64,000 nucleotides of DNA from Psilocybe cubensis (GCA_017499595.2 CM039004.1:2728001-2792000), one strand, 5' to 3'. Positions 11,327 to 59,300 are shown, counted from the stretch's first letter. Notes: generated by a model not told the origin, from the letters alone. Program-made: numbers and translations.

Positions 11327-11397
11327 TCTCGATTCTTGTTCGGTGTCCAAGAGGATAAAGAGATGCTTTGTTCTCATAACCTTGTATGCCACCCTCT

Positions 11398-11404
11398 TTT
11401 TATA
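11398..11404 (-). promoter_or_regulatory. TATA box of lectin paralog 1
   Basis: TATAAAA on the minus strand ~72 nt upstream of the ATG, conserved at the same position in paralog 2. Confidence 0.55.
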
Positions 11405-14428: not shown

Positions 14429-14500
14429 TCTCGATTCTTGGTCGATGTTCAAGAGGGTAAACGAGATGCTTTGTTCTCATAATCTTGTATGCCGCCCTCC

Positions 14501-14507
14501 TTTTATA
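14501..14507 (-). promoter_or_regulatory. TATA box of lectin paralog 2
   Basis: TATAAAA on the minus strand in a context homologous to 11398-11404. Confidence 0.55.
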
Positions 14508-15680
14508 TCTTCACTTGGCCACTAATGCTTCATACCCTTGCTAGAGTCAGTTCGATGATGCCAAGTCCCACTTCGGCTCTCGAATCCTTTGCGTTGTGCG
14601 TCTGTGGTACACTTGGACACATAGTTAAGCGCTGGCTTGGTCCTGGAATCAGATTTTTTGTCACATGTCCTGTAAAGATGGCATAGACTCTTCACTTTAC
14701 CGAACCATCAGACACGCTTGGAGCCATTCATTGTCTTGGTTGACATAAATTCTGCACTAGAAGGATACCATCCTTGTTCCAAAAAACGACAGATGTCACA
14801 CCAAACACTTTCTTTCTACTGAACCCAAAGGAAGTAACTGGAATGGAAGTTACTCAACTCCCTTTGTATGTTCCCTATTTCGTGAGCTGCTCTACTTTTT
14901 AAAAGACCGAGCTATTGACCAGATCAAAGTTGCTTCGACTGACCTTGCTAATGATTATCATCGAACGGTTCTGATTGTAGAACGCTATTAATGCGCAGCC
15001 AAATTTAAACCTTGTAAAATTCTAATAGTTGCCCCACCCTACGACCGCGTCTATCGATGGTTATATTTTCACTTTTAGGGCTCCACTTAACGTTAACTTG
15101 GACGCAATGCGGTGCTCCTGTGGTAGACTGGAATCTAAGTTTTTAATGTAATAGAAAAACATTGTACTATGATACTGAAACCGTAATAGGACGTACCGAG
15201 AGTCTAACCTTCTTGATCTCCATTCATGATCTATTCAATTGTTATAATTGTATGTCGGTATTGCAGGAATAAAAATCGATAAGTGCAGTGCGCCTGAGCG
15301 AATATCACGGACAACCATAGGCAAGTGATGGCTAGAGTGCTGCCTGCACTAGTATGTGAATACTGTGCATGAGGCCGGCATGCTGATGCACAGCCTTCCG
15401 GCCATTTTGTAGTGCTACTCCACTGAAAGCTAGTAGGTTGAGAGAGGCGTACGTTATACGGTTTGTAGAAAAGATCATTCAAGCAGGCCTATTTCCATGC
15501 CCAACATTCTAGCTGATAATGGATATGTAACTTGTCGGCTTGATGCCTACAGAGCAATAGTTCCGACCGAGATATACAATTGTCTTATTTATGATACAAA
15601 GTGTACATAAAAACAGATAGCAAAGTGAAAGAAAGCGTTGAGTAGATTATAAAAAAGAAGGAAGCTTAGAAAAGATGCCA

Positions 15681-20994: not shown

Positions 20995-21076
20995 GCCTTC
21001 ACAGTGATTGTACCAAGCAGCAAGAGCGAGAGTGGTAATTGATTGACACGATTCGTCGGAGTTCAAAGCGGAGTTT

Positions 21077-21082
21077 ACGCGT
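21077..21082. promoter_or_regulatory. MCB (MluI cell-cycle box) ACGCGT upstream of POL1
   Basis: ACGCGT ~83 nt upstream of the POL1 ATG. MCB elements drive G1/S expression of POL1 in yeasts. A single hexamer could be chance. Confidence 0.4.
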
Positions 21083-21823
21083 TAAGTCACGTCACATACT
21101 CACTGAGTCACACCAGCAATACTTGGACCTTGCTTTTTTAAAAAATCAAGTATATTTTACTATACTAAACGATGCGCGATAGCAGTCCTGCGAGGTAGGC
21201 TACACCTACTTGGACCTTGCTTGATGACTATTAAAATTGTGGAACGAATTGGGAACGAATGGACGATTCTCAATGCTCAGTCTCGGCTTTCACTGGTCCG
21301 TCCAGCCAGCCTCGTCATTGCATTGGGCCGATGCACTTAATTCGACGCACATTGATCGGAACAGCCATTTACGCACTGCTGGCGCTCTGTGATTTCCGCC
21401 ACACGGTAGATTTTTAGCTCGCCTCCCCAAGTCTGTGTCTGACAATCATCATGAAATGAGGGGTAGATATCCTTAATTTTGAGCATGAACAAACAATTTT
21501 ACAATTTGGGGCTCTCAGAAATGAAGCCGAGACCCATTCGCGCAAGGACTACAGTCGACTCGCCCTCATAAAGAAGACATTCGGGTGCTCTCACAGACTC
21601 GGGCCTCCCTTTTATCTCCACTCAGTCAGAGCAACCCGCCATCACGTAAAATCCAAAATTGTCTGGACGAAACAGGATATTCTACTTCTATAACTCACTG
21701 AGGCTTCTAGAATTCATGTAATCCCTGCTTCGCAGTGTCCGTTGGCTACATAATGGCGGCAGTCGCCAGCGTGGTGAATGGTACCCACGAGCATTAAACC
21801 TCTTTGTGTAGCTGCAGCTCGAG

Positions 21824-24186
21824 ATGCTGGTCGACTATCGGTATTGTCGAGAAGTGCTTTTGCGTATCAAGAGGCCTATGTCCGCGATCTCCAACCATCT
21901 AGAGAACAACGGGAGTACACAAACTTTGGAATCGCTTATGTCGTACGGATTGGGATCGGGTCCAAATGGGAAAGTTATCTCTCAGATGCCATGCGCCAAT
22001 GCCTCCAACAAAGGTCCTGGAGCGGAACCCTGCGTCAATACAGGACTCATGGCTTGTTCCCAGGTACTTCTTCATATTAATGAACACTGCGACTGACCTT
22101 TTCAGCTTATTTGACTTTGTCTTAGTGCTCTTTGGTTAAGGTATGTGTTTCGTTCAGCGAATCCATCACCTCAGCGTCTAATCGAGCGTCCAGTATTGCT
22201 CAGGACGATGCCAACGTCAACACTGGTCCAAACATCGCCTTGATTGTGAACACCAGTACTTGCAACACGACTGGGAACCGGGCTGGATGTCTGAGAACAG
22301 ACGGCCATTACTCTCAGACTGCAAATTTCTCCCAGCGTCTTCTTCTGTCGACAACTTCAAAAATACAGGATTTCCCGCATATGACATCCTCCAGCTTCAG
22401 CATAACGAGGGCGAGCTCTATACCAAAGATCTCAAAATTTGCATGACAGGTAAGCGAATTGTGGATCCCATGTTGTCAAACTAACTCTGCAATTTCAACT
22501 ATTGCAGCTGCTAGTGATATTCGCAATCTTGTCCAAACCGTCAACCGTCTTCCGAATGGGTACCCGGGAAAAATCGATATTCTCCTCAACAACAGCAACA
22601 CGGTCGTTCTCAACCGGATGCTGGTCATCCTCTGTGCTCTTCTCACTCCTGGACCATCCATCGACGAATCTGCCGAACTGGCCCTGCATCTGATGTATTC
22701 TGCCAGCCTTCCTGAAACTGCGGCGTCGTACATGCGTTACTGCGTGAACACCATATACGGCGAAGAGCTTGCTGACGGAGAAATGTCCTTCCAAACAACA
22801 CTACGAACCCGCGGGCGTGGAAAACTATACTCTGCACAGCCAGCTTCTGGGATCAAAAAGCCAATGGAGATGTTTTCTTCAACATGCAGTCTCTCGAAGA
22901 CGATCGATGCAATGAGAGAAAGCCTGCAGGACCCTTTTCAGATAGACGATAGAGAGAAACTTTTGTCTATGCTTGTGCCGGGACACAGGCTCGCGCTTGA
23001 CAGGTTCTGGAAGACGGGCATTCTGGCACCATTCTCATTGGATCTCAAACCCTTCAAGTCACCGAACAGGTGAGCAACAAAAATGTAGTCGTCTGGTATT
23101 CTCAAAGCTAAGCATCTGAACACCAAACGTTCTAGATTAATGTTTTCTTCTCAAGGAGAATGGATGGGACTTAGCAGTGACATTAATCCACTGCACGGGT
23201 GGGACGTCTCAGCAGTACGAACCACGGGACTTCGATTTGGGCTCGACCCTACGGCAGACATAATTGGTTGTCTCTTCTTCCATATCAAATCCGAGCTTCG
23301 CGAGTTCTCTTTGCGAATGAAGGAGCTTAACATCAACCTCCATTTGCTGCAGTACGATTCTCGCCTCCTCTCTAAGGGCATCTCCATAGGGGTCCTGCCC
23401 GCCTTCTCTGACGCCTCCTTCGACCGCATCGATATTGGCGACATGTGCGACCAGATGGACAATCTCGCCGAGTGCCTCGCGGACTGGGGTCCGCTCTTGA
23501 ACAAAAATAACCCCGACTCCTGTTTGTTCATGCACTCCAAGCAATGGCACGAAGAATTTCCTAGTTCCATTGCGCGCAACAATCCTAGGGCAGCCAAAAT
23601 CCTCATGGAGCGATGTCAGACCATGCCTTCTCTGGTCCGTACTCGTCTTCTTTAATTATCCCTCTACCTTCCCTACCCCCCGAGTCGGCGTCGCTCACCC
23701 AGGCCCCGCTTCTCTTCTTAACTGATGATGTACCTTTCCTTAGAAATCCAAGCTGAAGTCGTTCTTCAAGACACCACAGGCGCCGTCTATCGTCCGCCTG
23801 ATGGCCTCCTTGGACGCGTTCGTAGATCATGAAGCCGCATTCCTTCGCTATTTGGAAGCCCAAGAAGCGGACGCCATCACAGCCAGCCTCGGTCTGTGCA
23901 TACGCCAGGTCCACAGCGTACACCCAAAGGTCGGGGAATGATCATATGAGCCTCAGTCTTCGCTGATACCTTTTTCTCTTCTATCAGAGAGTCGGAATCC
24001 CACTCACGTCCGCGCATCAAAAGTTGCCCAACCTCTCCAAGGAAGAGTTTTACGACCTGTGTAAGTGGCTCTCCTATCCATTCGCCATTCGAAGTCTGCA
24101 GCTGAGGCCATATGTGTATAGTCACGATCGGAGGCTCTGACCTTACCATACGTTTCGCGGAGTTTGTGTTTGCTGACCTTGAGTAA
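21824..24186 (+). CDS. MYND-type zinc finger plus DUF4470-like domain protein; multi-exon
   Basis: PCAN...PC...GLMACSQ/CSLVK/YCSGRCQRQHWSKHRLDC (MYND), followed by FPAYDILQLQHNEG, DIRNLVQTVN.LP, NRMLVILC and WRFDR-like 'SFDRID' segments typical of fungal DUF4470 proteins. TAA at 24184-24186. The start may instead be 21878. Confidence 0.75.
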
Positions 24187-24457
24187 ATGCCTTTGGAAAC
24201 GAGCAGCTCCTCGAATCATTTGTATATATAAATCCTTGAATTTTTAGATGGAAACAGGATGGTAATATATAACTGCCGGATGGAACACAGCACATATGGA
24301 CAATGCACAACTAAACCAAAATATTAGACACCATTGTAAAAGATATTTTTATAACTAGATATTCAACAAAAATATACGTACTTTCTCAGTCAAAACCAAC
24401 ACGGGTGGCTTGGACCTCAAAGGCACAGAGTGACCAAAATATCCTTGTTATACCTTG

Positions 24458-26513
24458 CTATGCATCCAGTCCTTCAATATTCGTACCAGGAGGACAGACA
24501 ACCTCCCAGGATAAAAGAAGGACAAGTTTCCCTTGGGCCTGCAGCGAACAAACCCAATTAAACTTGCCATCCTTTCCAACCTGCCCTGGATCCATCTCCG
24601 GCTCATCCGCGCCTTCCCACCGCGCCACTACCTGAGAGCTAATCTTCACTGGCTCCGGTACAATAATGACACCCTTTTTGTTCGCCTGAGGTAGTACGAG
24701 ACCCGGAGAGGTCAGGTTGACTGTAATATTGCTGTCCTCTGATACAGGCACCTGCTCGCGTACTTTCAGGTAGCTGATGGGCGTCGCTTTGGTGTTACTG
24801 ATGCTGATGCGTTGAGAAAAAAGGTACGTAGAGTTTCGGCGCGTAAAGCTGGGTTGAGTGACTTTCTTGCTACGAGGGTGATAGGTGATGCGAACTGCAG
24901 GGTCGATGCTGTTTTGTTATGTAAAACAGATATTAGAAAACGGGTGGTAGCTTTATGGGGACACGACTTACCCAAGAGGACAATCAAAACTTTCCTGTGG
25001 GCTAACAGTCGGGATATCAGAGCGCGAGATGAAACTTCCATTGACGTAGATGCTTGCTATGCCGCGTAAAAGGGTATATTCAGAGTCATTCTTTATTTTT
25101 GCCTATAAACCAAAGAGATAGATGAGAAATTATCAGAAAAAGGTAGACATGTAGGACATACAGTTAAATGAGCCTTTGGCGATTTTTTTGGGACCGTAAC
25201 CCAGGACATGGCTGCGTCCAAATACACTTCCATTATAGTCACGGTATGAGAAGCGCCGTCACTCGGAATCGTCATTAATCCAGGGACCGAGAACGTTGCA
25301 TTGATGTCCCCTTTCGATGTGACTGTCAAGCCTCGGGCCTTGATGTTGGGCGGTCGCGAACTATGCAGTCTTCCTCCTCCTCTAGGTGGACCTCCATCAG
25401 ATTCAGAATCGGAACTAGCTGCAGATTCTTTTCTCATTGAGTGGCCGCCGAACGTGTTAAGGCTGGAGGCAGCAGCACTTTTTCTCAGGTACTTTCCGTA
25501 CATGGGCTTATACATAGAAAGCGTCCATGGCTGCAATTCCGGGATATTGAGTCCTGTTGTGGGCGTCACTGTCTCCAAAGTCAATGGAATATCATTCCAG
25601 GACTAGATCTGGGAATTAGCTTTGGTAGGTTCTGAGCAGCGAGATAATTTCAATCACCTCTCCTGTATTTTGTGAGATGGCTGCTTTGTATATAAGCTTT
25701 ACCGCCTTTTCCTTGGTGTCCATTTTCACGTAGATAGCGTAAGTAGGGTCCCAGGTAGCGCTGGAAACAGCTGTCCCAAAGAGTTTAGACTACTAGTGAC
25801 CAAGACTTGATGAATGAGATAAAGCTGACCGTATTTCAAAACAATCTCAACGTCGCATTCTTTGTCTGCGACGAGAGTTATGTAGACACGTTTGCGCAGC
25901 TTATTATCCACTTTGACCTCGCCCAATGCTACTTGCTCTTGCTCAATGTCTCTAGTAACCTCTGTAATTTGCTCTTCCAAATCAAGCTGCTTGAGATCCC
26001 ATTCCTCTGCAGCCGCGTCAATTCCTCGCTGCAAATTGGCCAACTCATCTGCCTTGACATGTCGCACGGCAATACTGTTCTGGAAAGACTGAACTGCCGC
26101 GATCGCTTTATGGCACCGCATCAACGCTTTCTCCAACCGAATCTTCTGCTTTATCAAGTCTTCAAGACGATCAGAGGTCGTCATAGGACCCGAAGAAGGA
26201 ATATCGGAGAGTGAAACTTCATAAATTGTACATTGACCGCGACCTTCAACTCTGTAGCACATCCACTGAATTAAGTACCAGTTACCCTTATAAAAGAAAA
26301 TAAAGCGTACCGAAGAGAATCTGGGACCAGCACATCAGGAAGACCGGACACAATGACCTTATTGTCGCCTTTCTTGAGCTTTGGTTCAAAAACACGCGTC
26401 ACCTCCGCCAGGCCAGTATACAAGCTAACGTTCGCGATCTTGCTATCCGTCTGACACGACAGGCATACCTCACTGACTGCTCGGCTTGCATTTGCGATTG
26501 CGTTTGGAGGCAT
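24458..26513 (-). CDS. DUF4140/DUF4139 protein (MuiA/TIGR02231-like), intact original copy; 6 exons
   Basis: Exons join in frame: SKIANVSLYTGLAEVTR...GLPDVLVPDSLR/VEGRG...coiled coil.../AVSSATWDPTY...AAISQNTGE/SWNDIPLTLET...TIPSDG.../AKIKNDSEYTLL...FDCPLG/IDPAVRITY...REQVPVSEDSNITVNL...FNWVCSL...LSWEV. 'QNTGE.W' and 'QVPVS.D' are family motifs. Confidence 0.85.
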
Positions 26514-27156
26514 CCTTCACTTTGAGTAGTAGGGTGAAGGAAGAGACAGCTTGTGTCGTATTGAGTCATTGGTTCTGTTATAATTACGTTTGGAAGTCAG
26601 GGCTAGATCAGGGGCTCCAAGGTGTCAAACGCCAGCACAGCCCCTGACAGTATATCCAAGAACAGGTTGCTCGTCAGGTTAATGGCGACTTTTATGATTA
26701 AAGATATTCAAAGTCAGCTATGGTTGGAAGCAGGTGAAGTATGCCGTCAGTCAGCAAATACAGGCCCATAGTAAGCTGGCAGACAACAAAATGCCATTTT
26801 TTGTTTCCCACGCTTCCTGCCCGCGTATTTCCCTAATGCGCTGAATACCCCGTGCCGCATTCTTATCGTGTACTTGATTCTGCTTTGGTCAGGGTCCTCT
26901 GATTCAATTTCCTAGTGGAATTCATCAACTGCCCAAGCTAATTTTAATTCCACTCTGTAAATGCGAAATCGCAAGTCACTGTATTCATCCTTTCTTTGCT
27001 GCTTTCTTCTCTTTGCAGAGAGTTGGTCGCATACCCCCCACACAGCTCTAGTTGCCCCGCCGCTGTGGCCTTCCCACCACCTCGTTCTCGTCGACGACCG
27101 TCCAACATTTCCACAGCCCACGCACAATGCAGCAACCAGCGCCCCGTTCCACTGGG

Positions 27157-28908
27157 CTACAACGCATCTGACAGCATGGGTCAGTCAATGCATACCTCAT
27201 TTATTTGTTGCTTACCTTTTTTTTCAGTGGTGTTGGCGGCCTAGGACGCAAACACGGCTCGATCCTCAACACTGCGGCGCTGTGTAAACCGTCAGAGGGC
27301 CTCACGCGCCGGCGGATGTCACGATTGGGCTGTACAAGGGGGCGGGCTCGTGTAAGTCAATGAATTCCGTATTTATTTGTTGCTTACCTTTCTTTTCAGG
27401 GCATTCGGTGGACTAGGATGCACACGGCTCGATTCTCAATACGGCGGTATTGTATAAACCGTCAGAGGCAGAGGCGTCAGAGAGCCTCACGCGCCGGCGG
27501 ATGTTATGATTGGGCTCTAGAAGGGGGTGGGTACAGGTAAGTCAATGAATTGCTTATTTCTTCATTGCTTACCTTTGTTTTCAGCAGAGTTGGTGGCCTA
27601 GGATGCGTACACGGCTCAATCCTCGACATGGCGGCACCATGCAAACCGTCAGACAGACGCACTGGAACTTGCATTTCTGATAGTTGGGTTGCGAAAGGGG
27701 TGTTGGGTCCCGCCGCTACAAGACGTTACGGCCGGGCTGTAGAAGTGGCGGGCTTGGGTAAGTCAATGAAACCTAATTCCTTTATTACTTACCTTTCTTT
27801 TCAAGACATTCAGTGGTCTAGGACGCACACGGCGATGGGGTGGGTACAGGTAAGTCAATGCATTGCTTATTTCTTCGTTGCTTACCTTTCTTTTCAGGAG
27901 AGTTGGTGGCCTACTAGCATGCGTATACGGCTGTAGACCGTCAGACACGTCAGAGATGGCGGGGTGTTGGACCTGTGGAAGGGGCGGGCACAGGTAAGTC
28001 GATGAATTCCTCGTATTTGTTGCGTACCTTCATTCGCTGGGATGCCCAGGACACACGGCGACGAGACGTGGCTCAACTCTGGTGCGGCGGCAGCGCTGTG
28101 TAGATGTGTGTAGCCCGTCAGACACGTTGGAGACCTGTGCAATAGGACATACCTTTACCGGTGGCACGCAGCAGAGGGGTGTATGTGAGTACCATGCCAC
28201 ACCATTTCAATATTGATTGCTCACCTCTAACCACTACAAAGACATGCGTAACCGGCTCGATTATCGACACGGCGGCACCATGTAAACTGTCAGAGGCAGA
28301 GGCAGAGGCTTCAGAAAGCCTCACGCTGTGGTGGATGTTACGATGAGGCTGTAGATAGGGGCGGGCATGGGTAAGTCAATGAATTGACTGTTTCTTTGTT
28401 GCTTACCTTTCTTTTGAGTGGTGTTGGTGGCCTAGGATGCAAACATGGCTTGATTTTCGACACGGCGGCGCTGTGTAGACCGTCAGACACGTCAGAGGCA
28501 GACGTAAGGGAACATACATTGACCAATGGCGGGGTGTTGGACCTGTAGAAAGTGGCGGGCACAGGTAAGTCGACAAATTCCTCATTTCATTATTACTTAC
28601 CTTCATTCGCTGGGGTGTTGGTGGACTAGAACACACGGCGACAAGGCATCAACAAGATGCCACCAACGTGGCTTGACTCTGGTGCGGCGGCGGAACTGTG
28701 TAGACGCGTGTAGCCTGTCAGACGCGTCGGAAACTTGTGGAACGGGACGTACCTTTACGTGTGGCGGGCTGTAGAAGGGTGTATGTGAGTACCATGCCAA
28801 ACCATTTCACGGTTACTCACCTCTCGATGGCCCTCTCGATGGCCTGGCAAGAAATGGCGACGAGCGCCGGTGGTCAGCCAAATTCACAGTTTCAAGACCA
28901 TCACTCAC
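27157..28908. repeat. Array of ten ~36-nt palindromic intron-like cores separated by related exon-like spacers (unit 1)
   Basis: GTRAG...CTYAC-type cores start at 27180, 27352, 27537, 27758, 27850, 27994, 28185, 28371, 28565 and 28785. Spacers share ggtggcctagga/cacacggc/ccgtcaga motifs. Confidence 0.85.
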
Positions 28909-29024
28909 CTATGACAAGCTGCTGAGATGCGTCGCAGGAGGAGGCGGAGAGGAGAGGAAAGAACTCCTGAGATGAGCAGAGGAGGACGAGTGGGATGAGA
29001 AAAAGTGAGTACATTCACGTCCTC

Positions 29025-29031
29025 TTTTATA
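29025..29031 (-). promoter_or_regulatory. Candidate TATA box for a minus-strand micro-exon transcript
   Basis: TATAAAA on the minus strand, followed by a CT-rich leader (29005-28910) and a GTGAGT donor at 28908. Confidence 0.45.
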
Positions 29032-31415
29032 GTTTGCAAAGCACGCTGCTGTACGTACACCGGTACGCTATGCAATTTCGGGTTCTACCGTTGGTTTGCA
29101 GGGTCCAATTTTGGGATCAGCAAACAACTTGAACGCAAAGCGGGTGCTAGCCGAGTGTATCTACCGTAGGATACACTCCTGTCTGTCTGTAGAATTGGAA
29201 TAGATGTGTTTTCATGTTTTCGTGGACTGCGTGTTTGTCTATTTCAAGTTGATCTGAATGTTTGTTTCGAGCTTAATTCGAGCACTTCAACTTTCTCCTA
29301 CTTTCTTGATGCCCGTCAGGTCTGCGCTGGATAATACACCTCACATTTCAACCTTGGGACTCCAATCCCTTTGCGTTAGACCAGTACGTATAGTAAAAAT
29401 TTCACCGGAAACATGCTAATTCATGCAATTACAGATATCTGGAATAAATCCTCAACGTTACCCCTCGAGCTCTAGCTTCCAGCCTTGAATTCAGAACGCC
29501 GCTCGATCTTACGTTGGTGATATATTACCTACCCGAATACCAGGACCCCTAACGACCCAAATTTCCAGACGTTTTGAAATAGCGTTATTTCGGAAGATTG
29601 GGACGAGGAGAGGGATATGGGTGGCGTGCACATTTGCTGAGTTGTCTTGCAAAATTTCAAACGTTGGTGCCGTTTACTGAGTATTGCAAAGGTACCAGGG
29701 TGCTCTCTAGCTCACTTGGATGTTGCAATTGTACGTGGTTTTTTGTGCTCTAGTGTTGTTTTGCTAAAATCAATATCTGGCGTTCTCGGGAGATGGATAA
29801 AAAATTTTGTGTTCAAACTTCGAAATTATGAGAATGGGTACGTGAACTGGACTAGTACCTATTGATAGATTCAGGGATGATATGAATCCAGTTTAATTTT
29901 TGAGAGAAGAACGGCGGATTTGGGATGGAGGTGAAGATGTTCCGGAGGTGCATAGGGATGGTTCTGCAATGAAATTTGAAGTTGATCTGGGATAGGTCAA
30001 TTCTTCACTTACACAGGGGTATTATACTGACCTCGATAGTCCAGATAAACGGTTCAATGAATGGAACCAATGTAAAGTTGCGTACATTTGCAGTGAATGT
30101 ATTCTCTGACCATCGCGGATCCACAGCTTCACCAACGTTCACTCGCACCTACCAGTCATCACCCACATACCCAGACATCCCCTATTATCCCAGAACCACA
30201 TACAAAACCGCATTATTCGCGCGTACAAAGTGTACAGCGTACATGTATTGCCAGCGCACAAACAAGGTTCGTCGAGTTCACCGCGTCTTCCTCTCATTTC
30301 GCTCTGACAGATAGTTCGATCGGGTATGCAAGAGGTGTCGTAATCACTCTGAAACGCGACGGGGGCGAAAAGAAAGCGAGTTGAAAGGCTGGAAAATGGG
30401 TAAATGGGGAGGAGGAGTACATGTCCTCTCGGCATTGTACGCATTCTATTCGACATTCGAGCGGTCTGGGGCGGTGGGTTAGTGTTCAGGGTGACTGGGT
30501 ATGCAGGTGCGTATGTCGTCCGAAACGATTTCTGGTGTATTTGCGTCGCTTTTGTAGGTATGTGCTTTTGATTCAATTTGGTTTCCAGATTTTATTTGAA
30601 GATTTCATGAACATCGGGAGGGTTTATCGAGGTACAGTGACTCTTTCCTGTGCAATATAATGGAGTACAAAAGTTATAAAGTGCTACAAAGTGCTTAAAC
30701 TAGCTAACCACGTTGTAGGTAGATTTGGATCTGATGAGCTGTATCGTTAAAACTTGATATTTTCAATGAAAACTGACTACTTTCCTGTATTCTGGAGTGT
30801 ATATCAATAGGGGCTATGACTCTGCATGATGTGCATAGGTCTACCTAACGAGAAACAAGCGGAAAACCCTCCATTTCCTCCCACAACCGTTAATTGCAAT
30901 CCAGGCATTGGACTAAAAGCCGAGCGGGCACTAGCTTCAAAGAAGTTTGGTAACGTAAGTGATATATTTGCTTTCCATACAGTGAAGCATTGGAAACTGA
31001 TTGAATAGAAAACATGGCGAAATTGAACCGGGAAAGGAGGTGAGCATACTTTATTTGTAAATTTTTTGATTCTCCTTCCAAATTTTCTTCTGTCAGAGAT
31101 GAGAAACTATTGCATAAAGGCTGGGGAGAGTGTTAGGCTACAGATACATACGAGTTCTTTGAGTGTAAACATGTTTAAACGCGAATACACTTGTGTGTTT
31201 GCTTGCAAGATTGAAATGCTGTAATATAATCTGGTATTCTGAACTCCAATTGCGTACATTTTGATTAGTATTTACACTAGATTAGTCCTGTATAGCGCGC
31301 GCTTGAGCTATCAAGCCAATGCATAGGTAAAACGGATCTGAACAAGGTATGTTTAAGGCTGCAATAGTGAGTACATAGCGCTACATGGATGCCGGACATA
31401 AGTTCCCGGGCAGGA

Positions 31416-33409: not shown

Positions 33410-34225
33410 CATTCGAAATTTGAAATTTGGAGTTCCCGCGACCCGTGTATTCTTGCCACCGTTGACTGGGGATGCCAGCGTCTAGTCTTGTTCCCGCGAC
33501 TTTTCGCCATCGACACGTGAGTATTTGTGTCAAGACACATGAGAGGTATGTGTATTTATCGTGCATTGTGTTGTATTTGCTCACAGTTTGGCAGGATTCG
33601 AAATTCGAAATTTGGAGTTCCCGCGACCCGTGGTTTCTTCCTGCCGTTGAGTTGCAGTGCCAGCGTCCAGTCTTGATACTCAGAATTCCCGCAACCCGTG
33701 GTTTCTTGCCGCCGTTGAGTCGGAGTGCCAGCAACCAGTCTTGATATTCAGAGTTCCCGCAATTTGTGAGTTTTTCCCGCCATCGACTTGGAGTGCCTGC
33801 AACGGGTGAGTATTTGTGTCCAGACGAATGAGAGGTGTGACTTGTTGTTCCCGGTGCTGGTATGTGCTCTGCCTTGAGATTTGGTGTTTGGAGTTCCGGC
33901 GGCGCGTGAGTCTGCTCTATAGGTACGTGTTGCTGCCCCTGTGTTGTACAGTCTTGCGCTGACCGTATGGTCGGGGTCCTAAGATTTGAAATAAAGTTCC
34001 CGCAGCCACTTAGCCTCTCGCCATCTGGCTCATCTATCAAGACCCGACTGGATTACCGTATTACGAGTCGCTGTTTTATCAAGACACGGTGATGGAACTT
34101 CAATCGTGTGTCTCGACTTGATAGGTACGTGTCACTTCCCCTTGCTCTGACTGTATGGTTGGGGTTTTGAAGTTCCCGCGGGCACCTAGCCCCTTGCCAT
34201 CTGGCTCGTCTATCAAGACCTCAAT
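33410..34225. repeat. Cluster of short degenerate repeats (GAGTTCCCGC family)
   Basis: About ten (ga)gttcccgc-like motifs; gtgagtatttgtgtc x2; ataggtacgtgt x2; gccatctggctc.tctatcaagacc x2. Confidence 0.8.
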
Positions 34226-36445
34226 CTAGGGATCCCTTGATGATGCGCCCTTCTCGTTCTTTCATTCCCTTCTTTTTCTTTTTTTTTGTGTTTTATTTTG
34301 TAGTGGGACACCTTTGTAGTAGATAGCAAAAATGAATGCATGGCCTTTGGGCGGGGAGAGACTATGTCACTGAACAGTGCGAAAAATGGCAAAAAACTTC
34401 TATCTCTTTCACTCAGGGTCGTCTCTTTAAGGTATCTCGCCCCATATAAGGGTAAAACCAACACAACTTCTGACGTCATTTGCAGCGAACAAACCTTGCC
34501 ATCCTTTCCAACCTGCCCTGGATCCATCTCCGGCTCATCCGCGCCTTCCCACCGCGCCACCACCTGAGAGCTAATCTTCACTGGCTCCGGTACAATAATG
34601 ACACCCTTTTTGTTCGCCTGAGGTAGTACGAGACCCGGAGAGGTCAGGTTGACTGTAATATTGCTGTCCTCTGATACAGGCACCTGCTCGCGTACTTTCA
34701 GGTAGCTGATGGGCGTCGCTTTGGTGTTACTGATGCTGATGCGTTGAGAAAAAAGGTACGTAGAGTTTCGGCGCGTAAAGCTGGGTTGAGTGACTTTCTT
34801 GCTACGAGGGTGATAGGTGATGCGAACTGCAGGGTCGATGCTGTTTTGTTATGTAAAACAGATATTAGAAAACGGGTGGTAGCTTTATGGGGACACGACT
34901 TACCCAAGAGGACAATCAAAACTTTCCTGTGGGCTAACAGTCGGGATATCAGAGCGCGAGATGAAACTTCCATTGACGTAGATGCTTGCTATGCCGCGTA
35001 AAAGGGTATATTCAGAGTCATTCTTTATTTTTGCCTATAAACCAAAGAGATAGATGAGAAATTATCAGAAAAAGGTAGACATGTAGGACATACAGTTAAA
35101 TGAGCCTTTGGCGATTTTTTTGGGACCGTAACCCAGGACATGGCTGCGTCCAAATACACTTCCATTATAGTCACGGTATGAGAAGCGCCGTCACTCGGAA
35201 TCGTCATTAATCCAGGGACCGAGAACGTTGCATTGATGTCCCCTTTCGATGTGACTGTCAAGCCTCGGGCCTTGATGTTGGGCGGTCGCGAACTATGCAG
35301 TCTTCCTCCTCCTCTAGGTGGACCTCCATCAGATTCAGAATCGGAACTAGCTGCAGATTCTTTTCTCATTGAGTGGCCGCCGAACGTGTTAAGGCTGGAG
35401 GCAGCAGCACTTTTTCTCAGGTACTTTCCGTACATGGGCTTATACATAGAAAGCGTCCATGGCTGCAATTCCGGGATATTGAGTCCTGTTGTGGGCGTCA
35501 CTGTCTCCAAAGTCAATGGAATATCATTCCAGGACTAGATCTGGGAATTAGCTTTGGTAGGTTCTGAGCAGCGAGATAATTTCAATCACCTCTCCTGTAT
35601 TTTGTGAGATGGCTGCTTTGTATATAAGCTTTACCGCCTTTTCCTTGGTGTCCATTTTCACGTAGATAGCGTAAGTAGGGTCCCAGGTAGCGCTGGAAAC
35701 AGCTGTCCCAAAGAGTTTAGACTACTAGTGACCAAGACTTGATGAATGAGATAAAGCTGACCGTATTTCAAAACAATCTCAACGTCGCATTCTTTGTCTG
35801 CGACGAGAGTTATGTAGACACGTTTGCGCAGCTTATTATCCACTTTGACCTCGCCCAATGCTACTTGCTCTTGCTCAATGTCTCTAGTAACCTCTGTAAT
35901 TTGCTCTTCCAAATCAAGCTGCTTGAGATCCCATTCCTCTGCAGCCGCGTCAATTCCTCGCTGCAAATTGGCCAACTCATCTGCCTTGACATGTCGCACG
36001 GCAATACTGTTCTGGAAAGACTGAACTGCCGCGATCGCTTTATGGCACCGCATCAACGCTTTCTCCAACCGAATCTTCTGCTTTATCAAGTCTTCAAGAC
36101 GATCAGAGGTCGTCATAGGACCCGAAGAAGGAATATCGGAGAGTGAAACTTCATAAATTGTACATTGACCGCGACCTTCAACTCTGTAGCACATCCACTG
36201 AATTAAGTACCAGTTACCCTTATAAAAGAAAATAAAGCGTACCGAAGAGAATCTGGGACCAGCACATCAGGAAGACCGGACACAATGACCTTATTGTCGC
36301 CTTTCTTGAGCTTTGGTTCAAAAACACGCGTCACCTCCGCCAGGCCAGTATACAAGCTAACGTTCGCGATCTTGCTATCCGTCTGACACGACAGGCATAC
36401 CTCACTGACTGCTCGGCTTGCATTTGCGATTGCGTTTGGAGGCAT
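34213..36445 (-). CDS. DUF4140/DUF4139 gene copy 2, with a 3-aa deletion and a replaced, extended C-terminus
   Basis: Identical to copy 1 until GKDGK, lacks FNW, keeps VCSLQ, then reads across the repeat junction into MTSEVVLVLPLYG...IPRLRS*. May be non-functional. Confidence 0.75.
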
Positions 36446-39400
36446 CCTTCACTTTGAGTAGTAGGGTGAAGGAAGAGACAGCTTGTGTCGTATTGAGTCA
36501 TTGGTTCTGTTATAATTACGTTTGGAAGTCAGGGCTAGATCAGGGGCTCCAAGGTGTCAAACGCCAGCACAGCCCCTGACAGTATATCCAAGAACAGGTT
36601 GCTCGTCAGGTTAATGGCGACTTTTATGATTAAAGATATTCAAAGTCAGCTATGGTTGGAAGCAGGTGAAGTATGCCGTCAGTCAGCAAATACAGGCCCA
36701 TAGTAAGCTGGCAGACAACAAAATGCCATTTTTTGTTTCCCACGCTTCCTGCCCGCGTATTTCCCTAATGCGCTGAATACCCCGTGCCGCATTCTTATCG
36801 TGTACTTGATTCTGCTTTGGTCAGGGTCCTCTGATTCAATTTCCTAGTGGAATTCATCAACTGCCCAAGCTAATTTTAATTCCACTCTGTAAATGCGAAA
36901 TCGCAAGTCACTGTATTCATCCTTTCTTTGCTGCTTTCTTCTCTTTGCAGAGAGTTGGTCGCATACCCCCCACACAGCTCTAGTTGCCCCGCCGCTGTGG
37001 CCTTCCCACCACCTCGTTCTCGTCGACGACCGTCCAACATTTCCACAGCCCACGCACAATGCAGCAACCAGCGCCCCGTTCCACTGGGCTACAACGCATC
37101 TGACAGCATGGGTCAGTCAATGCATACCTCATTTATTTGTTGCTTACCTTTTTTTTCAGTGGTGTTGGCGGCCTAGGACGCAAACACGGCTCGATCCTCA
37201 ACACTGCGGCGCTGTGTAAACCGTCAGAGGGCCTCACGCGCCGGCGGATGTCACGATTGGGCTGTACAAGGGGGCGGGCTCGTGTAAGTCAATGAATTCC
37301 GTATTTATTTGTTGCTTACCTTTCTTTTCAGGGCATTCGGTGGACTAGGATGCACACGGCTCGATTCTCAATACGGCGGTATTGTATAAACCGTCAGAGG
37401 CAGAGGCGTCAGAGAGCCTCACGCGCCGGCGGATGTTATGATTGGGCTCTAGAAGGGGGTGGGTACAGGTAAGTCAATGAATTGCTTATTTCTTCATTGC
37501 TTACCTTTGTTTTCAGCAGAGTTGGTGGCCTAGGATGCGTACACGGCTCAATCCTCGACATGGCGGCACCATGCAAACCGTCAGACAGACGCACTGGAAC
37601 TTGCATTTCTGATAGTTGGGTTGCGAAAGGGGTGTTGGGTCCCGCCGCTACAAGACGTTACGGCCGGGCTGTAGAAGTGGCGGGCTTGGGTAAGTCAATG
37701 AAACCTAATTCCTTTATTACTTACCTTTCTTTTCAAGACATTCAGTGGTCTAGGACGCACACGGCGATGGGGTGGGTACAGGTAAGTCAATGCATTGCTT
37801 ATTTCTTCGTTGCTTACCTTTCTTTTCAGGAGAGTTGGTGGCCTACTAGCATGCGTATACGGCTGTAGACCGTCAGACACGTCAGAGATGGCGGGGTGTT
37901 GGACCTGTGGAAGGGGCGGGCACAGGTAAGTCGATGAATTCCTCGTATTTGTTGCGTACCTTCATTCGCTGGGATGCCCAGGACACACGGCGACGAGACG
38001 TGGCTCAACTCTGGTGCGGCGGCAGCGCTGTGTAGATGTGTGTAGCCCGTCAGACACGTTGGAGACCTGTGCAATAGGACATACCTTTACCGGTGGCACG
38101 CAGCAGAGGGGTGTATGTGAGTACCATGCCACACCATTTCAATATTGATTGCTCACCTCTAACCACTACAAAGACATGCGTAACCGGCTCGATTATCGAC
38201 ACGGCGGCACCATGTAAACTGTCAGAGGCAGAGGCAGAGGCTTCAGAAAGCCTCACGCTGTGGTGGATGTTACGATGAGGCTGTAGATAGGGGCGGGCAT
38301 GGGTAAGTCAATGAATTGACTGTTTCTTTGTTGCTTACCTTTCTTTTGAGTGGTGTTGGTGGCCTAGGATGCAAACATGGCTTGATTTTCGACACGGCGG
38401 CGCTGTGTAGACCGTCAGACACGTCAGAGGCAGACGTAAGGGAACATACATTGACCAATGGCGGGGTGTTGGACCTGTAGAAAGTGGCGGGCACAGGTAA
38501 GTCGACAAATTCCTCATTTCATTATTACTTACCTTCATTCGCTGGGGTGTTGGTGGACTAGAACACACGGCGACAAGGCATCAACAAGATGCCACCAACG
38601 TGGCTTGACTCTGGTGCGGCGGCGGAACTGTGTAGACGCGTGTAGCCTGTCAGACGCGTCGGAAACTTGTGGAACGGGACGTACCTTTACGTGTGGCGGG
38701 CTGTAGAAGGGTGTATGTGAGTACCATGCCAAACCATTTCACGGTTACTCACCTCTCGATGGCCCTCTCGATGGCCTGGCAAGAAATGGCGACGAGCGCC
38801 GGTGGTCAGCCAAATTCACAGTTTCAAGACCATCACTCACCTATGACAAGCTGCTGAGATGCGTCGCAGGAGGAGGCGGAGAGGAGAGGAAAGAACTCCT
38901 GAGATGAGCAGAGGAGGACGAGTGGGATGAGAAAAAGTGAGTACATTCACGTCCTCTTTTATAGTTTGCAAAGCACGCTGCTGTACGTACACCGGTACGC
39001 TATGCAATTTCGGGTTCTACCGTTGGTTTGCAGGGTCCAATTTTGGGATCAGCAAACAACTTGAACGCAAAGCGGGTGCTAGCCGAGTGTATCTACCGTA
39101 GGATACACTCCTGTCTGTCTGTAGAATTGGAATAGATGTGTTTTCATGTTTTCGTGGACTGCGTGTTTGTCTATTTCAAGTTGATCTGAATGTTTGTTTC
39201 GAGCTTAATTCGAGCACTTCAACTTTCTCCTACTTTCTTGATGCCCGTCAGGTCTGCGCTGGATAATACACCTCACATTTCAACCTTGGGACTCCAATCC
39301 CTTTGCGTTAGACCAGTACGTATAGTAAAAATTTCACCGGAAACATGCTAATTCATGCAATTACAGATATCTGGAATAAATCCTCAACGTTACCCCTCGA

Positions 39401-46377: not shown

Positions 46378-49300
46378 CCTTCACTTTGACTAGTATCCAC
46401 GAGGTCGACGTGTAGGGGGAAGGAAGAGACAGCTTGTGTCGTATTGAGTCATTGGTTTCGCCCTACAGCTGTTATAATTACGTTCGGAAGTCAGGGCTAG
46501 ATCAGGGGCTCCAAGGTGTCAAACGCCAGCACAGCCCCTGACAGTATATCCAAGAACAGGTTGCTCGTCAGGTTAATGGCGACTTTTATGATTAAAGATA
46601 TTCAAAGTCAGCTATGGTTGGAAGCAGGTGAAGTATGCCGTCAGTCAGCAAATACAGGCCCATAGTAAGCTGGCAGACAACAAAATGCCATTTTTGTTTC
46701 CCACGCTTCCTGCCCGCGTAATTCCCTAATGCGCTGAATACCCCGTGCCGCATTTTTATCGTGTACTTGATTCTGCTTTGGTCAGGGTCCTCTGATTCGA
46801 TTTCCTAGTGGAATTCATCAACTGCCCAAGCTAATTTTAATTCCACTCTGTAAATGCGAAATCGCAAGTCACTGTATTCATCCTTTCTTTGCTGCTTTCT
46901 TCTCTTTGCAGAGAGTTGGTCGCATACCCCCCACACAGCTCTAGTTGCCCCGCCGCTGTGGCCTTCCCACCACCTCGTTCTCGTCGACGACCCGTCCAAC
47001 ATTTCCACAGCCCACGCACAATGCAGCAACCAACGCCCCGTTCCACTGGGCTACAACACATCTGACAGCATGGGTCAGTCAATGCATACCTCATTTATTT
47101 GTTGCTTACGTTTCTTTTCAGTGGTGTTGGCGGCCTAGGACGCAAACACGGCTCGATCCTCAACACTGCGGCGCTGTGTAAACCGTCAGAGGGCCTCACG
47201 CGCCGGCGGATGTTACGATTGGGCTGTACAAGGGGGCGGGCACGGGTAAGTCAATGAATTCATCATTTCTTTGCTGCTTACCTTTCTTTTCAGGGCATTC
47301 GGTGGACTAGGACGCACACGGCTTGATTCTCAATACGGCGGTATTGAATAAACCGTCAGAGGCAGAGGCGTCAGAGAGCCTCACGCGCCGGCAGATGTTA
47401 TCATTGGGCTCTAGAAGGGGGTGGGTACAGGTAAGTCAATGAATTGCTTATTTCTTCATTGCTTACCTTTGTTTTCAGCAGAGTTGGTGGCCTAGGATGC
47501 GTACACGGCTCAATCCTCGACACGGCGGCACCATGCAAACCGTCAGACAGACGCACTGGAATTTGCGTTTCTGATAGTTGGGTTGCGAAAGGGGTGTTGG
47601 GTCCCGCCGCTACAAGACGTTACGGCCGGGCTGTAGAAGTGGCGGGCTTGGGTAAGTCAATGAAACCTAATTCCTTTATTACTTACCTTTCTTTTCAAGA
47701 CATTCAGTGGTCTAGGACGCACACGGCGATGGGGTGGGTACAGGTAAGTCAATGCATCGCTTATTTCTTCGTTGCTTACCTTTCTTTTCAGGAGAGTTGG
47801 TGGCCTACTAGCATGCGTACACGGCTGTAGACCGTCAGACATGTCAGAGATGGCGGGGTGTTGGACCTGTGGAAGGAGGTAAGTCAATGAATTCCTCATA
47901 TTTGTTGCGTACCTTCATTCGCTGGGATGCCCAGGACACACGGCGACGAGACGTGGCTCGACTCTGGTGCGGCGGCGGCGCTGTGTAGATGTGTGTAGCC
48001 CGTCAGACGCGTTGGAGACCTGTGCAATAGGACATACCTTTACCGGTGGCGCGCAGCAGAGGGGTGTATGTGAGTACCATGCCACACCATTTCAATATTG
48101 ATTGCTCACCTCTAACCACTACAAAGACATGCGTAACTGGCTCGATTATCGACACGGCGGCACCATGCAAACTGTCAGAGGCAGAGGCAGAGGCTTCAGA
48201 AAGCCTCACGCTGTGGTGGATGTTACGATGAGGCTGTAGATAGGGGCGGGCATGGGTAAGTCAATGAATTGCTTGTTTCTTTGTTGCTTACCTTTCTTTT
48301 GAGTGGTGTTGGTGGCCTAGGATGCAAACATGGCTTGATTTTCGACACGGCGGCGCTGTGTAGACCGTCAGACACGTCAGAGCCAGACGTAAGGGAACAT
48401 ACATTGACCGATGGCGGGGTGTTGGACCTGTAGAAAGTGGCGGGCACAGGTAAGTCGACAAATTCCTCATTTCATTGTTACTTACCTTCATTCGCTGGGG
48501 TGTTGGTGGACTAGAACACACGGCGACAAGGCATCAACAAGATGCCACCAACGTGGCTTGACTCTGGTGCGGCGGCGGAACTGTGTAGACGCGTGTAGCC
48601 TGTCAGACGCGTCGGAAACTTGTGGAACGGGACGTACCTTTACGTGTGGCGGGCTGTAGAAGGGTGTATGTGAGTACCATGCCAAACCATTTCACGGTTG
48701 CTCACCTCTCGATGGCCTGGCAAAAAATGGCGACAAGCGCCGGTGGTCAGCCAAATTCACAGTTTCAAGACCATCACTCACCTATGACAAGCTGCTGAGA
48801 CGCGTCGCAGGAGGAGGCGGAGAGGAGAGAAGAGAACCCCTGAGATGAGCAAAGGAGGACGAGTGGGATGAGAAAAAGTGAGTACATTCACGTCCTCTTT
48901 TATAGTTTGCAAAGCACGCCGCTGTACGTACACCGGTACGCTATGCAATTTCGGGTTCTACCGTTGGTTTGCAGGGTCCAATTTTGGGATCAGCAAACAA
49001 CTTGAACGCAAAGCGGGTGCTAGCCGAGTGTATCTACCGTAGGATACACTCCTGTCTGTCTGTAGATTTGGAATAGATGTGTTTTTCATGTTTTCGTGGA
49101 CTGCGTGTTTGTCTATTTCAAGTTGATCTGAATGTTTGTTTCGAGCTTAATTCGAGCACTTCAACTTTCTCCTACTTTCTTGATGCCCGTCAGGTCTGCG
49201 CTGGATAATACACCTCACATTTCAACCTTGGGACTCCAATCCCTTTGCGTTAGACCAGTACGTATAGTAAAAATTTCACCGGAAACATGCTAATTCATGC

Positions 49301-56319: not shown

Positions 56320-59300
56320 CCTTCACTTTGAGTAGTAGGGTGAAGGAAGAGACAGCTTGTGTCGTATTGAGTCATTGGTTCTGTTATAATTACGTTTGGA
56401 AGTCAGGGCTAGATCAGGGGCTCCAAGGTGTCAAACGCCAGCACAGCCCCTGACAGTATATCCAAGAACAGGTTGCTCGTCAGGTTAATGGCGACTTTTA
56501 TGATTAAAGATATTCAAAGTCAGCTATGGTTGGAAGCAGGTGAAGTATGCCGTCAGTCAGCAAATACAGGCCCATAGTAAGCTGGCAGACAACAAAATGC
56601 CATTTTTTGTTTCCCACGCTTCCTGCCCGCGTATTTCCCTAATGCGCTGAATACCCCGTGCCGCATTCTTATCGTGTACTTGATTCTGCTTTGGTCAGGG
56701 TCCTCTGATTCAATTTCCTAGTGGAATTCATCAACTGCCCAAGCTAATTTTAATTCCACTCTGTAAATGCGAAATCGCAAGTCACTGTATTCATCCTTTC
56801 TTTGCTGCTTTCTTCTCTTTGCAGAGAGTTGGTCGCATACCCCCCACACAGCTCTAGTTGCCCCGCCGCTGTGGCCTTCCCACCACCTCGTTCTCGTCGA
56901 CGACCGTCCAACATTTCCACAGCCCACGCACAATGCAGCAACCAGCGCCCCGTTCCACTGGGCTACAACGCATCTGACAGCATGGGTCAGTCAATGCATA
57001 CCTCATTTATTTGTTGCTTACCTTTTTTTTCAGTGGTGTTGGCGGCCTAGGACGCAAACACGGCTCGATCCTCAACACTGCGGCGCTGTGTAAACCGTCA
57101 GAGGGCCTCACGCGCCGGCGGATGTCACGATTGGGCTGTACAAGGGGGCGGGCTCGTGTAAGTCAATGAATTCCGTATTTATTTGTTGCTTACCTTTCTT
57201 TTCAGGGCATTCGGTGGACTAGGATGCACACGGCTCGATTCTCAATACGGCGGTATTGTATAAACCGTCAGAGGCAGAGGCGTCAGAGAGCCTCACGCGC
57301 CGGCGGATGTTATGATTGGGCTCTAGAAGGGGGTGGGTACAGGTAAGTCAATGAATTGCTTATTTCTTCATTGCTTACCTTTGTTTTCAGCAGAGTTGGT
57401 GGCCTAGGATGCGTACACGGCTCAATCCTCGACATGGCGGCACCATGCAAACCGTCAGACAGACGCACTGGAACTTGCATTTCTGATAGTTGGGTTGCGA
57501 AAGGGGTGTTGGGTCCCGCCGCTACAAGACGTTACGGCCGGGCTGTAGAAGTGGCGGGCTTGGGTAAGTCAATGAAACCTAATTCCTTTATTACTTACCT
57601 TTCTTTTCAAGACATTCAGTGGTCTAGGACGCACACGGCGATGGGGTGGGTACAGGTAAGTCAATGCATTGCTTATTTCTTCGTTGCTTACCTTTCTTTT
57701 CAGGAGAGTTGGTGGCCTACTAGCATGCGTATACGGCTGTAGACCGTCAGACACGTCAGAGATGGCGGGGTGTTGGACCTGTGGAAGGGGCGGGCACAGG
57801 TAAGTCGATGAATTCCTCGTATTTGTTGCGTACCTTCATTCGCTGGGATGCCCAGGACACACGGCGACGAGACGTGGCTCAACTCTGGTGCGGCGGCAGC
57901 GCTGTGTAGATGTGTGTAGCCCGTCAGACACGTTGGAGACCTGTGCAATAGGACATACCTTTACCGGTGGCACGCAGCAGAGGGGTGTATGTGAGTACCA
58001 TGCCACACCATTTCAATATTGATTGCTCACCTCTAACCACTACAAAGACATGCGTAACCGGCTCGATTATCGACACGGCGGCACCATGTAAACTGTCAGA
58101 GGCAGAGGCAGAGGCTTCAGAAAGCCTCACGCTGTGGTGGATGTTACGATGAGGCTGTAGATAGGGGCGGGCATGGGTAAGTCAATGAATTGACTGTTTC
58201 TTTGTTGCTTACCTTTCTTTTGAGTGGTGTTGGTGGCCTAGGATGCAAACATGGCTTGATTTTCGACACGGCGGCGCTGTGTAGACCGTCAGACACGTCA
58301 GAGGCAGACGTAAGGGAACATACATTGACCAATGGCGGGGTGTTGGACCTGTAGAAAGTGGCGGGCACAGGTAAGTCGACAAATTCCTCATTTCATTATT
58401 ACTTACCTTCATTCGCTGGGGTGTTGGTGGACTAGAACACACGGCGACAAGGCATCAACAAGATGCCACCAACGTGGCTTGACTCTGGTGCGGCGGCGGA
58501 ACTGTGTAGACGCGTGTAGCCTGTCAGACGCGTCGGAAACTTGTGGAACGGGACGTACCTTTACGTGTGGCGGGCTGTAGAAGGGTGTATGTGAGTACCA
58601 TGCCAAACCATTTCACGGTTACTCACCTCTCGATGGCCCTCTCGATGGCCTGGCAAGAAATGGCGACGAGCGCCGGTGGTCAGCCAAATTCACAGTTTCA
58701 AGACCATCACTCACCTATGACAAGCTGCTGAGATGCGTCGCAGGAGGAGGCGGAGAGGAGAGGAAAGAACTCCTGAGATGAGCAGAGGAGGACGAGTGGG
58801 ATGAGAAAAAGTGAGTACATTCACGTCCTCTTTTATAGTTTGCAAAGCACGCTGCTGTACGTACACCGGTACGCTATGCAATTTCGGGTTCTACCGTTGG
58901 TTTGCAGGGTCCAATTTTGGGATCAGCAAACAACTTGAACGCAAAGCGGGTGCTAGCCGAGTGTATCTACCGTAGGATACACTCCTGTCTGTCTGTAGAA
59001 TTGGAATAGATGTGTTTTCATGTTTTCGTGGACTGCGTGTTTGTCTATTTCAAGTTGATCTGAATGTTTGTTTCGAGCTTAATTCGAGCACTTCAACTTT
59101 CTCCTACTTTCTTGATGCCCGTCAGGTCTGCGCTGGATAATACACCTCACATTTCAACCTTGGGACTCCAATCCCTTTGCGTTAGACCAGTACGTATAGT
59201 AAAAATTTCACCGGAAACATGCTAATTCATGCAATTACAGATATCTGGAATAAATCCTCAACGTTACCCCTCGAGCTCTAGCTTCCAGCCTTGAATTCAG

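Follow-up and report, generated by a model that had tools for sequence, protein, structure and literature searches.

The analysed window comprises 64,000 nt of Psilocybe cubensis DNA (GCA_017499595.2 CM039004.1:2728001-2792000), and positions are counted from its first letter. The setting is fungal: spliced genes with GT..AG introns of 48-109 nt lie at 19000-26531, where RNA contigs from two runs with the same species label (X3 and X4) displayed both GT..AG and CT..AC joints. A gene at 24458-26334 on the minus strand, which matches the Pfam families DUF4140/DUF4139 and has an exon 99% identical to a protein labelled Psilocybe cubensis by its source, is the neighbour of a degenerate tandem array (Table 1). 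No recognisable gene was found across the ~8-kb stretch that holds this array. Aligned at 95% likeness and derived from a strain 1-2% different, the X3 and X4 RNA contigs did not cover any part of 26680-30500, which has no bearing on whether the array is expressed.

The array is itself part of a larger repeat. Starting at 24560 and reaching the window end, four head-to-tail copies of a 9,932-bp segment share 99.2-99.9% identity, and the array recurs once per segment (at about +9,932, +19,890, and +29,806). Differences between macro-copies 3 and 1 over 26700-29300 include deletions of 9 nt and 12 nt. Short-read contigs from two DNA runs recovered 26941-28927 with 0-1 differences; the broken frames of the array are therefore not assembly errors, and the sequence is sound. 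At 26801, 26940, 26970, and 30263, contigs of both DNA runs stop with identical unmatched continuations, which implies that, elsewhere in those genomes, the flanks of the array adjoin other sequences or exist as paralogous copies.

Array units are arranged head to tail in the manner of a minisatellite, and all ten align with one another and descend from a common ancestor. They fall into three subtypes, namely A (U0-U4 and U7), B (U5 and U8), and C (U6 and U9). As U7-U8-U9 repeats U4-U5-U6, a higher-order repeat of 570-600 nt is present. Together, these features support the spread by tandem duplication proposed in a preliminary description of this DNA. Tandem Repeats Finder reported a period of 185 nt, and spacings within the repeat families range from 92 to 221 nt. 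The units have diverged by 15-25% and carry frame-breaking indels. Each contains a core of the form GT.AGT...C..ACC, whose length from GT to ACC is 37 nt in seven cases and 36, 35, and 41 nt in one case each. Measured from GT to AC, the ten cores span 34-40 nt, seven of them 36 nt, in agreement with the preliminary description, and the example core quoted there from 27535 reads exactly as given.

Table 1 Features of the tandem array, its cores and candidate introns, and its macro-copies
Feature	Position	Strand	Details
Degenerate tandem array	26990..28950	.	left partial unit plus ten units U0-U9, 92-221 nt each
Core U0	27180..27216	.	GTCAGT...CTTACC; minus candidate 27215-27168, 48 nt, CTGAC branch
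Core U0, plus candidate	27180-27227	+	48 nt
Core U1	27352..27388	.	minus candidate 27387-27330, 58 nt; plus candidate 27352-27399, 48 nt
Core U2	27537..27573	.	sole perfect 7+7+7+7 palindrome; -14.2 kcal/mol as plus RNA, -15.1 as minus RNA; minus candidate 27572-27517, 56 nt, TAG; plus candidate 27537-27584, 48 nt
Core U3	27758..27793	.	minus candidate 27792-27737, 56 nt; plus candidate 27758-27805, AAG end
Core U4	27850..27886	.	minus candidate 27885-27818, 68 nt, TAG; plus candidate 27850-27897, 48 nt
Core U5 (subtype B)	27994..28028	.	minus candidate 28027-27973, 55 nt; plus candidate 27994-28049, 56 nt
Core U6 (subtype C)	28185..28225	.	GTGAGT...CTCACC; first minus YAG 90 nt from donor 28224
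Core U6, plus candidate	28185-28241	+	AAG end
Core U7	28371..28407	.	minus candidate 28406-28349, 58 nt; plus candidate 28371-28418, GAG end
Core U8 (subtype B)	28565..28601	.	minus candidate 28600-28543, 58 nt; plus TAG ~65 nt downstream
Core U9 (subtype C)	28785..28821	.	minus candidate 28820-28769, 52 nt, -16.1 kcal/mol as minus RNA
Core U9, plus candidate	28785-28851	+	AAG end
Non-palindromic canonical intron candidate	28844..28908	-	GTGAGT...GGCTGACC...CCAG, 65 nt; outside the repeat units
Non-palindromic canonical intron candidate	28696..28752	-	GTACGT...CTGAC...ACAG, 57 nt
Non-palindromic canonical intron candidate	28471..28517	-	GTATGT...CTGAC...ACAG, 47 nt
Non-palindromic canonical intron candidate	28096..28152	-	GTATGT...CTGAC...ACAG, 57 nt
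TATA-box-like octamer TATAAAAG	29024..29031	-	upstream of the array in minus orientation
CT-rich tract	28935..28965	-	between TATA-like box and first minus donor
Array, macro-copy 2	37089..38752	.	equals copy 1 over 26700-29300
Array, macro-copy 3	47051..48693 (approximate)	.	103 of 2,633 alignment columns differ from copy 1 over 26700-29300
Array, macro-copy 4	56963..58626	.	equals copy 1 over 26700-29300

Two core patterns matched 16 and 12 times in the window (0.00 and 0.01 matches expected from shuffles). These matches correspond to four and three distinct cores, each present in four near-identical macro-copies, so the tandem-duplicated occurrences are not independent of one another. A metagenome scan for the core pattern returned five loci, none alignable to the array, and a literature search on tandem repeats of Psilocybe cubensis returned nothing relevant.

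The outermost 7+7 nt of the cores (AGGTAAG/CTTACCT) form Watson-Crick pairs in 61 of 70 cells and the inner 7+7 nt in 39 of 70, with perfect inner pairing confined to the core at 27537. It is the terminal 7+7-nt palindrome (GGTAAG/CTTACC) that makes the cores look spliceable in both directions, and its ten occurrences go back to one ancestral unit multiplied by tandem duplication. A caveat already attached to the preliminary description, the natural near-complementarity of donor and branch consensus, accounts for ends that read as donor on one strand and as branch site on the other, given that a GTAAGT 5′ splice site is complementary to an ACTNAC branch. Such donor/branch self-complementarity is absent from the 12 RNA-supported introns of the window, unlike the array cores.

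The canonical splice signals are distributed very unequally between the strands. Within 26950-29020, the minus strand carries 13 copies of the canonical branch motif CTGAC and the plus strand a single one. A strict intron pattern (GT[AG]NG[TC]...CT[AG]A[CT]...YAG, at most 110 nt) matched six times on the minus strand and never on the plus strand; Markov simulations gave a mean of ~1 such match, and six were reached in 0 of 300. Both counts are inflated by the shared descent of the units and stand for perhaps 3-4 independent motifs, not 13. Downstream of each of the ten minus core donors, a YAG lies at 48-90 nt (48-68 nt in nine), distances covered by the local intron length of 48-109 nt among the 12 RNA-supported introns. 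On the plus strand, a YAG is similarly placed for six of ten donors, and AAG or GAG takes its position in the remaining four. When the sequence features of U2-type introns were applied (GT...YAG, a donor of the local class, CTNAY 10-30 nt before the acceptor, and local length range), the minus strand provided the ten core candidates and four further candidates of 47-65 nt. On the plus strand, the branch would be CTTAC or CTCAC. The six minus candidates of the preliminary description, each with ACAG at its 3′ end, measure 58, 56, 55, 58, 58, and 52 nt. Its six plus candidates are indeed exactly 48 nt long, but two of them end in AAG (27805) and GAG (28418). Given these strand differences, the sequence does not support its proposal of an orientation-independent intron unit.

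Sequence conservation within the array follows the same signals. Over the 175 columns of the array, the least variable 7-mers, read on the minus strand, are the 5′ splice site and the branch motif: the rate of non-consensus letters was 0.043 for AGGTAAG and 0.048-0.063 for CTGACGG/TGACGGT, compared with an array mean of 0.269. The conserved CTGACGG is not part of the cores; ...TACACAG comes after it, and in three units a GTATGT or GTACGT ahead of it completes candidates for ordinary introns of 47-57 nt. In core U5, the minus donor GTACGC breaks the palindrome but leaves a usable donor of a class found in real introns here. Three observations speak against a minus-strand reading at this level: (i) in 15 rows, the plus motif GT.AGT shows the same invariance as the minus donor, at 5 of 6 positions; (ii) several predicted minus exons measure only 16-27 nt; and (iii) substitutions between copies 3 and 1 are divided evenly, with 19 in minus candidate introns and 18 in exons by hand tally.

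The RNA-supported introns at 19040-25829 themselves contain loose donors (GTCCGT twice, GTTCGT, GTCGGG, GTGATT, and GTCAGC), and their branch motifs include CTCAC and CTCAT. Splice-site consensus is consequently a weak filter in this genome.

Judged from these sequence features, the locus is tentatively explained, with somewhat less than even confidence, as a multi-intron unit of the minus strand that is probably non-coding or decayed and was built by exon-intron duplication, the plus-strand introns being its mirror image. We infer transcription and splicing from the minus strand. The lineage-specific, degenerate array would have arisen through repeated duplication of a ~190-nt module with one short intron, and some units would carry a second short intron beside the first. 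The putative transcription unit would lie upstream of the DUF4140/DUF4139 gene and in the same orientation. In keeping with a minus-strand unit, the TATA-like octamer TATAAAAG and the CT-rich tract are found immediately ahead of the array in this orientation. In each core, the presumed minus 5′ splice site AAG|GTAAGY is the reverse complement of the presumed minus branch region ACTTAC, which fits RCTNAC, so that the same 36 nt again show GTAAGT...CTTAC when read on the plus strand. Likewise, the apparent polypyrimidine tract and acceptor of the plus strand, ctttcttttcag, would be the antisense of a purine-rich minus exon end (CTGAAAAGAAAG|GT). The second caveat of the preliminary description fits best here, according to which the plus acceptor might merely be the antisense of codons for LKRK; the presumed minus exon end that it mirrors reads ...AAAAGAAAG|GTAAG. 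The plus-strand introns would accordingly be reflections rather than working introns.

That the plus strand is the sole sense strand, with the 48-nt units as its introns, appears the least probable of the explanations considered. Perfect CAG|GTAAGT donors in four cores and the length of 48 nt, constant over six candidates, are in line with it. Moreover, when the introns of the preliminary description were spliced out, the longest frame was on the plus strand (174 aa, spanning five plus junctions, vs 122 aa on the minus strand). However, a start codon is missing from the region around its beginning, and homologous units are read in different frames. The acceptor is weakened or lost in four of ten units, and the single CTGAC of the plus strand stands against the 13 of the minus strand.

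Predicted hairpins of the cores are modest, ranging from -5.7 to -14.2 kcal/mol as plus RNA and from -2.3 to -16.1 kcal/mol as minus RNA. The best stem has 14 pairs with a bulge (-14 to -16 kcal/mol), while most cores reach -4 to -10 kcal/mol. Compared with dinucleotide shuffles, z was -2 or lower for eight of ten cores as plus RNA and for six of ten as minus RNA. For the 12 RNA-supported introns of the window, the fold z was at least -0.54 (mononucleotide shuffles), which marks the array cores as unusual for this genome. If G-U pairs are included, the inner arms pair in 54 of 70 cells on the plus strand vs 43 of 70 on the minus strand. Owing to the G-U pairs, plus RNA forms the somewhat more stable hairpin on average, which agrees with the plus strand as sole sense strand and counts against the minus-strand reading. 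In subtype C, one pair is changed in both arms, from A-T to G-C.

In a further explanation, both strands would be transcribed and each would excise the same palindromic core, with the hairpin possibly serving in both RNAs, an arrangement we consider very improbable. In line with it, the two facing ends of the core are both consensus donors and equally invariant, the hairpin exceeds shuffled sequences on both strands in most cores, the subtype C pair is changed on both sides, and the six plus candidates share a length of exactly 48 nt, which 1 of the 12 real introns also has. Yet a YAG acceptor is missing from four of the ten plus candidates, the plus strand contains no canonical CT[AG]A[CT] intron and no promoter-like feature was seen on it, and homologous plus 'exons' fall into different frames. 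The compensatory change of subtype C is a single event common to two duplicated units, and shuffle controls for covariation can be exceeded without structure when sequences are related, as the tool itself warns. Overall, nothing specific favours two-way splicing. A bidirectional cassette, in which the ~36-nt palindrome is excised from both transcripts of a convergently transcribed tandem array, is likewise hardly probable; here, hairpin pairing between the 5′ splice site and the U1-like ACUUACC of the branch region would modulate splicing or promote module duplication. Palindromes with GGTAAG arms call for caution, since they imitate introns on either strand.

Neither strand provided a convincing reading frame. 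In the fully spliced minus model, frames do not go beyond 93-119 aa. Eight ORFs of the window served to train a codon model, which recognised the true frame for 42 of 48 held-out chunks; every frame of the array scored at most +0.01 bits per codon. The minus frame ending in ...LK[RKT]K|GTAAG ranked first of six in five of nine inter-core segments and near the top elsewhere, with scores of -0.16 to +0.01 bits per codon vs 0.144 ± 0.14 for true frames. The best plus scores were -0.06 to -0.24, a further point against the plus strand as sole sense strand. Under a loose splicing rule (GTNNG...YAG, 44-110 nt), the minus strand gave a frame of 416 aa and the plus strand one of 449 aa, compared with 99-170 aa in control regions. 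As array-long frames arise on both strands, this test does not discriminate between them; the minus loose model is the more coherent, with modules in a single frame that each end in LK[RKT]K.

An improbable explanation, though less so than splicing from both strands, is a minus-strand gene for a secreted protein built of repeats, each module with a dibasic LKRK-type site at its end; the gene would be split by many short introns with degenerate donors. The 416-aa frame runs from ATG 29014 through the whole array, begins with a hydrophobic N-terminus, contains four modules ...SDGLHxAAxSxIxPCxHPRPPTxLKxK in one frame, and exceeds what the same loose rules yield in control regions. Moreover, the length of some indels is divisible by three: 15 and 21 nt when units are compared, 9 and 12 nt when copies are. 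Against a protein of this kind, the plus strand yields 449 aa by the same loose search, the fully spliced minus model remains short, and the codon score is lower than in real genes. Its ATG lies just 10 nt downstream of the TATA-like box. The differences showed no clear three-base periodicity (0.312, 0.283, and 0.249). Set against the 416-aa model, copy 3 brings two stop codons, and 17 of 26 changes are non-synonymous; with 9 of 26 synonymous changes vs 25-34% expected, the comparison of copies 3 and 1 revealed no constraint at the protein level. Kex2-processed repeat proteins have one open frame, a signal peptide, and repeats split by dibasic sites. The array was rejected as a member of this class, as the canonical-intron frame from ATG 29014 stops after 65 aa and the loose model needed to reach 416 aa is over-fitted.

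Homology searches did not return a homologue, which likewise counts against a protein. Protein word searches gave no candidate for the minus ORF 28338-28586 (proteins of 45-144 aa searched) and 11 candidates, none significant, for the plus ORF 27541-27936 (proteins of 72-230 aa searched). In a HMMER search of the minus ORF against 1.84 billion representatives, the sole hit, P0001 (E = 1.2e-7), was spurious: it is the 1,384-aa translation of another tandem repeat, and its score is the sum of 15 identical repeats. A single stretch of it shares 10 of 26 residues with the minus ORF (pairwise E = 0.004). The array ORFs had no match in Pfam. For the whole window, Rfam returned nothing at gathering score, with a lone chance match at 28978-29033 (E = 9.5). 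The tRNA search found none, and a tRNA- or SINE-like reading of GGCTCGATCC was rejected.

The main rival to the minus-strand reading is an untranscribed, essentially neutral intergenic minisatellite in which duplication multiplied the splice-ended palindrome of one ancestral unit, and whose conserved motifs reflect recent homogenisation or roles at the DNA level rather than splicing. We rate this as unlikely, though clearly less so than a secreted protein. It would account for divergence between units proceeding at about the same rate in cores and spacers, which also speaks against the minus-strand reading. Similarly, it would suit the lack of any matching homologue, Pfam family, or RNA family, the failure of canonical introns to give an array-wide frame, the substitutions between copies 3 and 1 without protein-level constraint, and the ~8-kb surroundings without a recognisable gene. 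It is at odds with the concentration of the lowest variability at the 5′ splice site and CTGAC branch motif against a background of 27% non-consensus letters, with the marked strand asymmetry of canonical intron matches, and with a TATA-like box in matching orientation. Transcription from the minus strand would, in turn, yield a transcript that is either non-coding or derived from a decayed or very young gene.

If the minus-strand reading is true, the array is a clear case of intron number growing through tandem duplication of an exon-intron module, and it would provide a short fungal intron with complementarity between its 5′ splice site and its branch region. It would then represent a natural test of how donor-branch pairing affects U1/U2 recognition. 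If the array is untranscribed, it is an ordinary lineage-specific minisatellite.

As in tandem exon-intron duplication within genes, the units are arranged head to tail with the same intron-like module at the same place, and the higher-order repeat of U4-U6 and U7-U9 is typical of unequal crossing-over. Unlike such cases, the array has neither a continuous frame nor a homologous protein, and its units are 15-25% diverged with frame-breaking indels. The nearest parallels on record are symmetrical (stw)introns of the Hypoxylaceae; introners and introner-like elements are others. According to PMC8469720, symmetrical stwintrons and their 'type-2 cropped' sister introns have 45-55-nt inverted repeats around a 10-nt palindrome (WTTCTAGAAA), are at least 93 nt long, occupy new positions in many unrelated ascomycete genes, and are genuine introns on the coding strand only. 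On that account, they resemble the array cores as short, hairpin-capable fungal spliceosomal introns with terminal inverted repeats. The array differs in its arms of 7-15 nt, its cores of 35-41 nt, its confinement to one tandem array, and its apparently basidiomycete host, and a 10-nt palindrome of this type is absent from the cores.

Introners, as presented in PMC9860276, PMC3609843, and PMC7789003, are introns that resemble one another in sequence, in many cases combine inverted repeats with a stable predicted structure, and are dispersed over many genes, commonly with target-site duplications; the same sources describe introner-like elements as exceeding regular introns in length. Among fungi, introners were found in Pezizomycotina only, according to PMC9860276. 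To judge from these descriptions, the array shares the similar intron sequences, inverted repeats, and stable predicted structure, and differs in showing no dispersal in the window, no direct repeat in its flanks, and candidates of ordinary intron length. All core matches in the 64-kb window lie within the four arrays, the cores are not flanked by direct repeats as a target-site duplication would leave, and most candidates (48-68 nt) are as long as regular introns here, so that the introner-like source considered in the preliminary description was not upheld. Where testable, the defining features of the related families, as far as these sources set them out (long terminal repeats, dispersal, and target-site duplications or extra length), are absent from the array.

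In mirtrons, the intron folds into a pre-miRNA-like hairpin whose stem comprises about 20 pairs or more. With stems of at most 14 pairs, the best of them bulged, the cores were rejected as mirtrons, and the mirtron-like source suggested earlier is not supported.

Further observations concern the surroundings of the array. The left boundary of the 9,932-bp segment falls within the final exon of the DUF4139 gene, and because of this position the C-terminal reading of the gene is altered in copies 2-4 (ORF 34213-34848 vs 24458-24916). In DNA run X2, read depth over the 9,932-bp unit was 183 vs 76 in the left flank (~2.4x), and contigs break at the boundary. In DNA run X1, a single contig spans it, and the amplification may thus be strain-specific. 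Macro-copy 3 has insertions of 19 nt and 11 nt in the 5′ region of the DUF4139 gene (26440-26720 and 46304-46620 compared), a form with which an X3 RNA contig agrees. A 22-nt loose end of an X3 contig at 26531 was considered as an upstream exon and rejected, as it corresponds to the copy-3 allele with the 19-nt insertion. In another X3 RNA contig, 128 nt at 22063-22192 (ends GT..CC) are replaced by 13 other letters, probably a strain difference rather than an intron. An unrelated second tandem repeat at 33618-33803 has a period of 68 nt, 2.7 copies, and 83% matches. Finally, two segments of ~1.3 kb at 10078-11405 and 13202-14508 are 85.6% identical, and each contains a minus ORF of ~390-399 aa starting CQLFLSGILALCAVAAH; they look like a diverged tandem gene pair.
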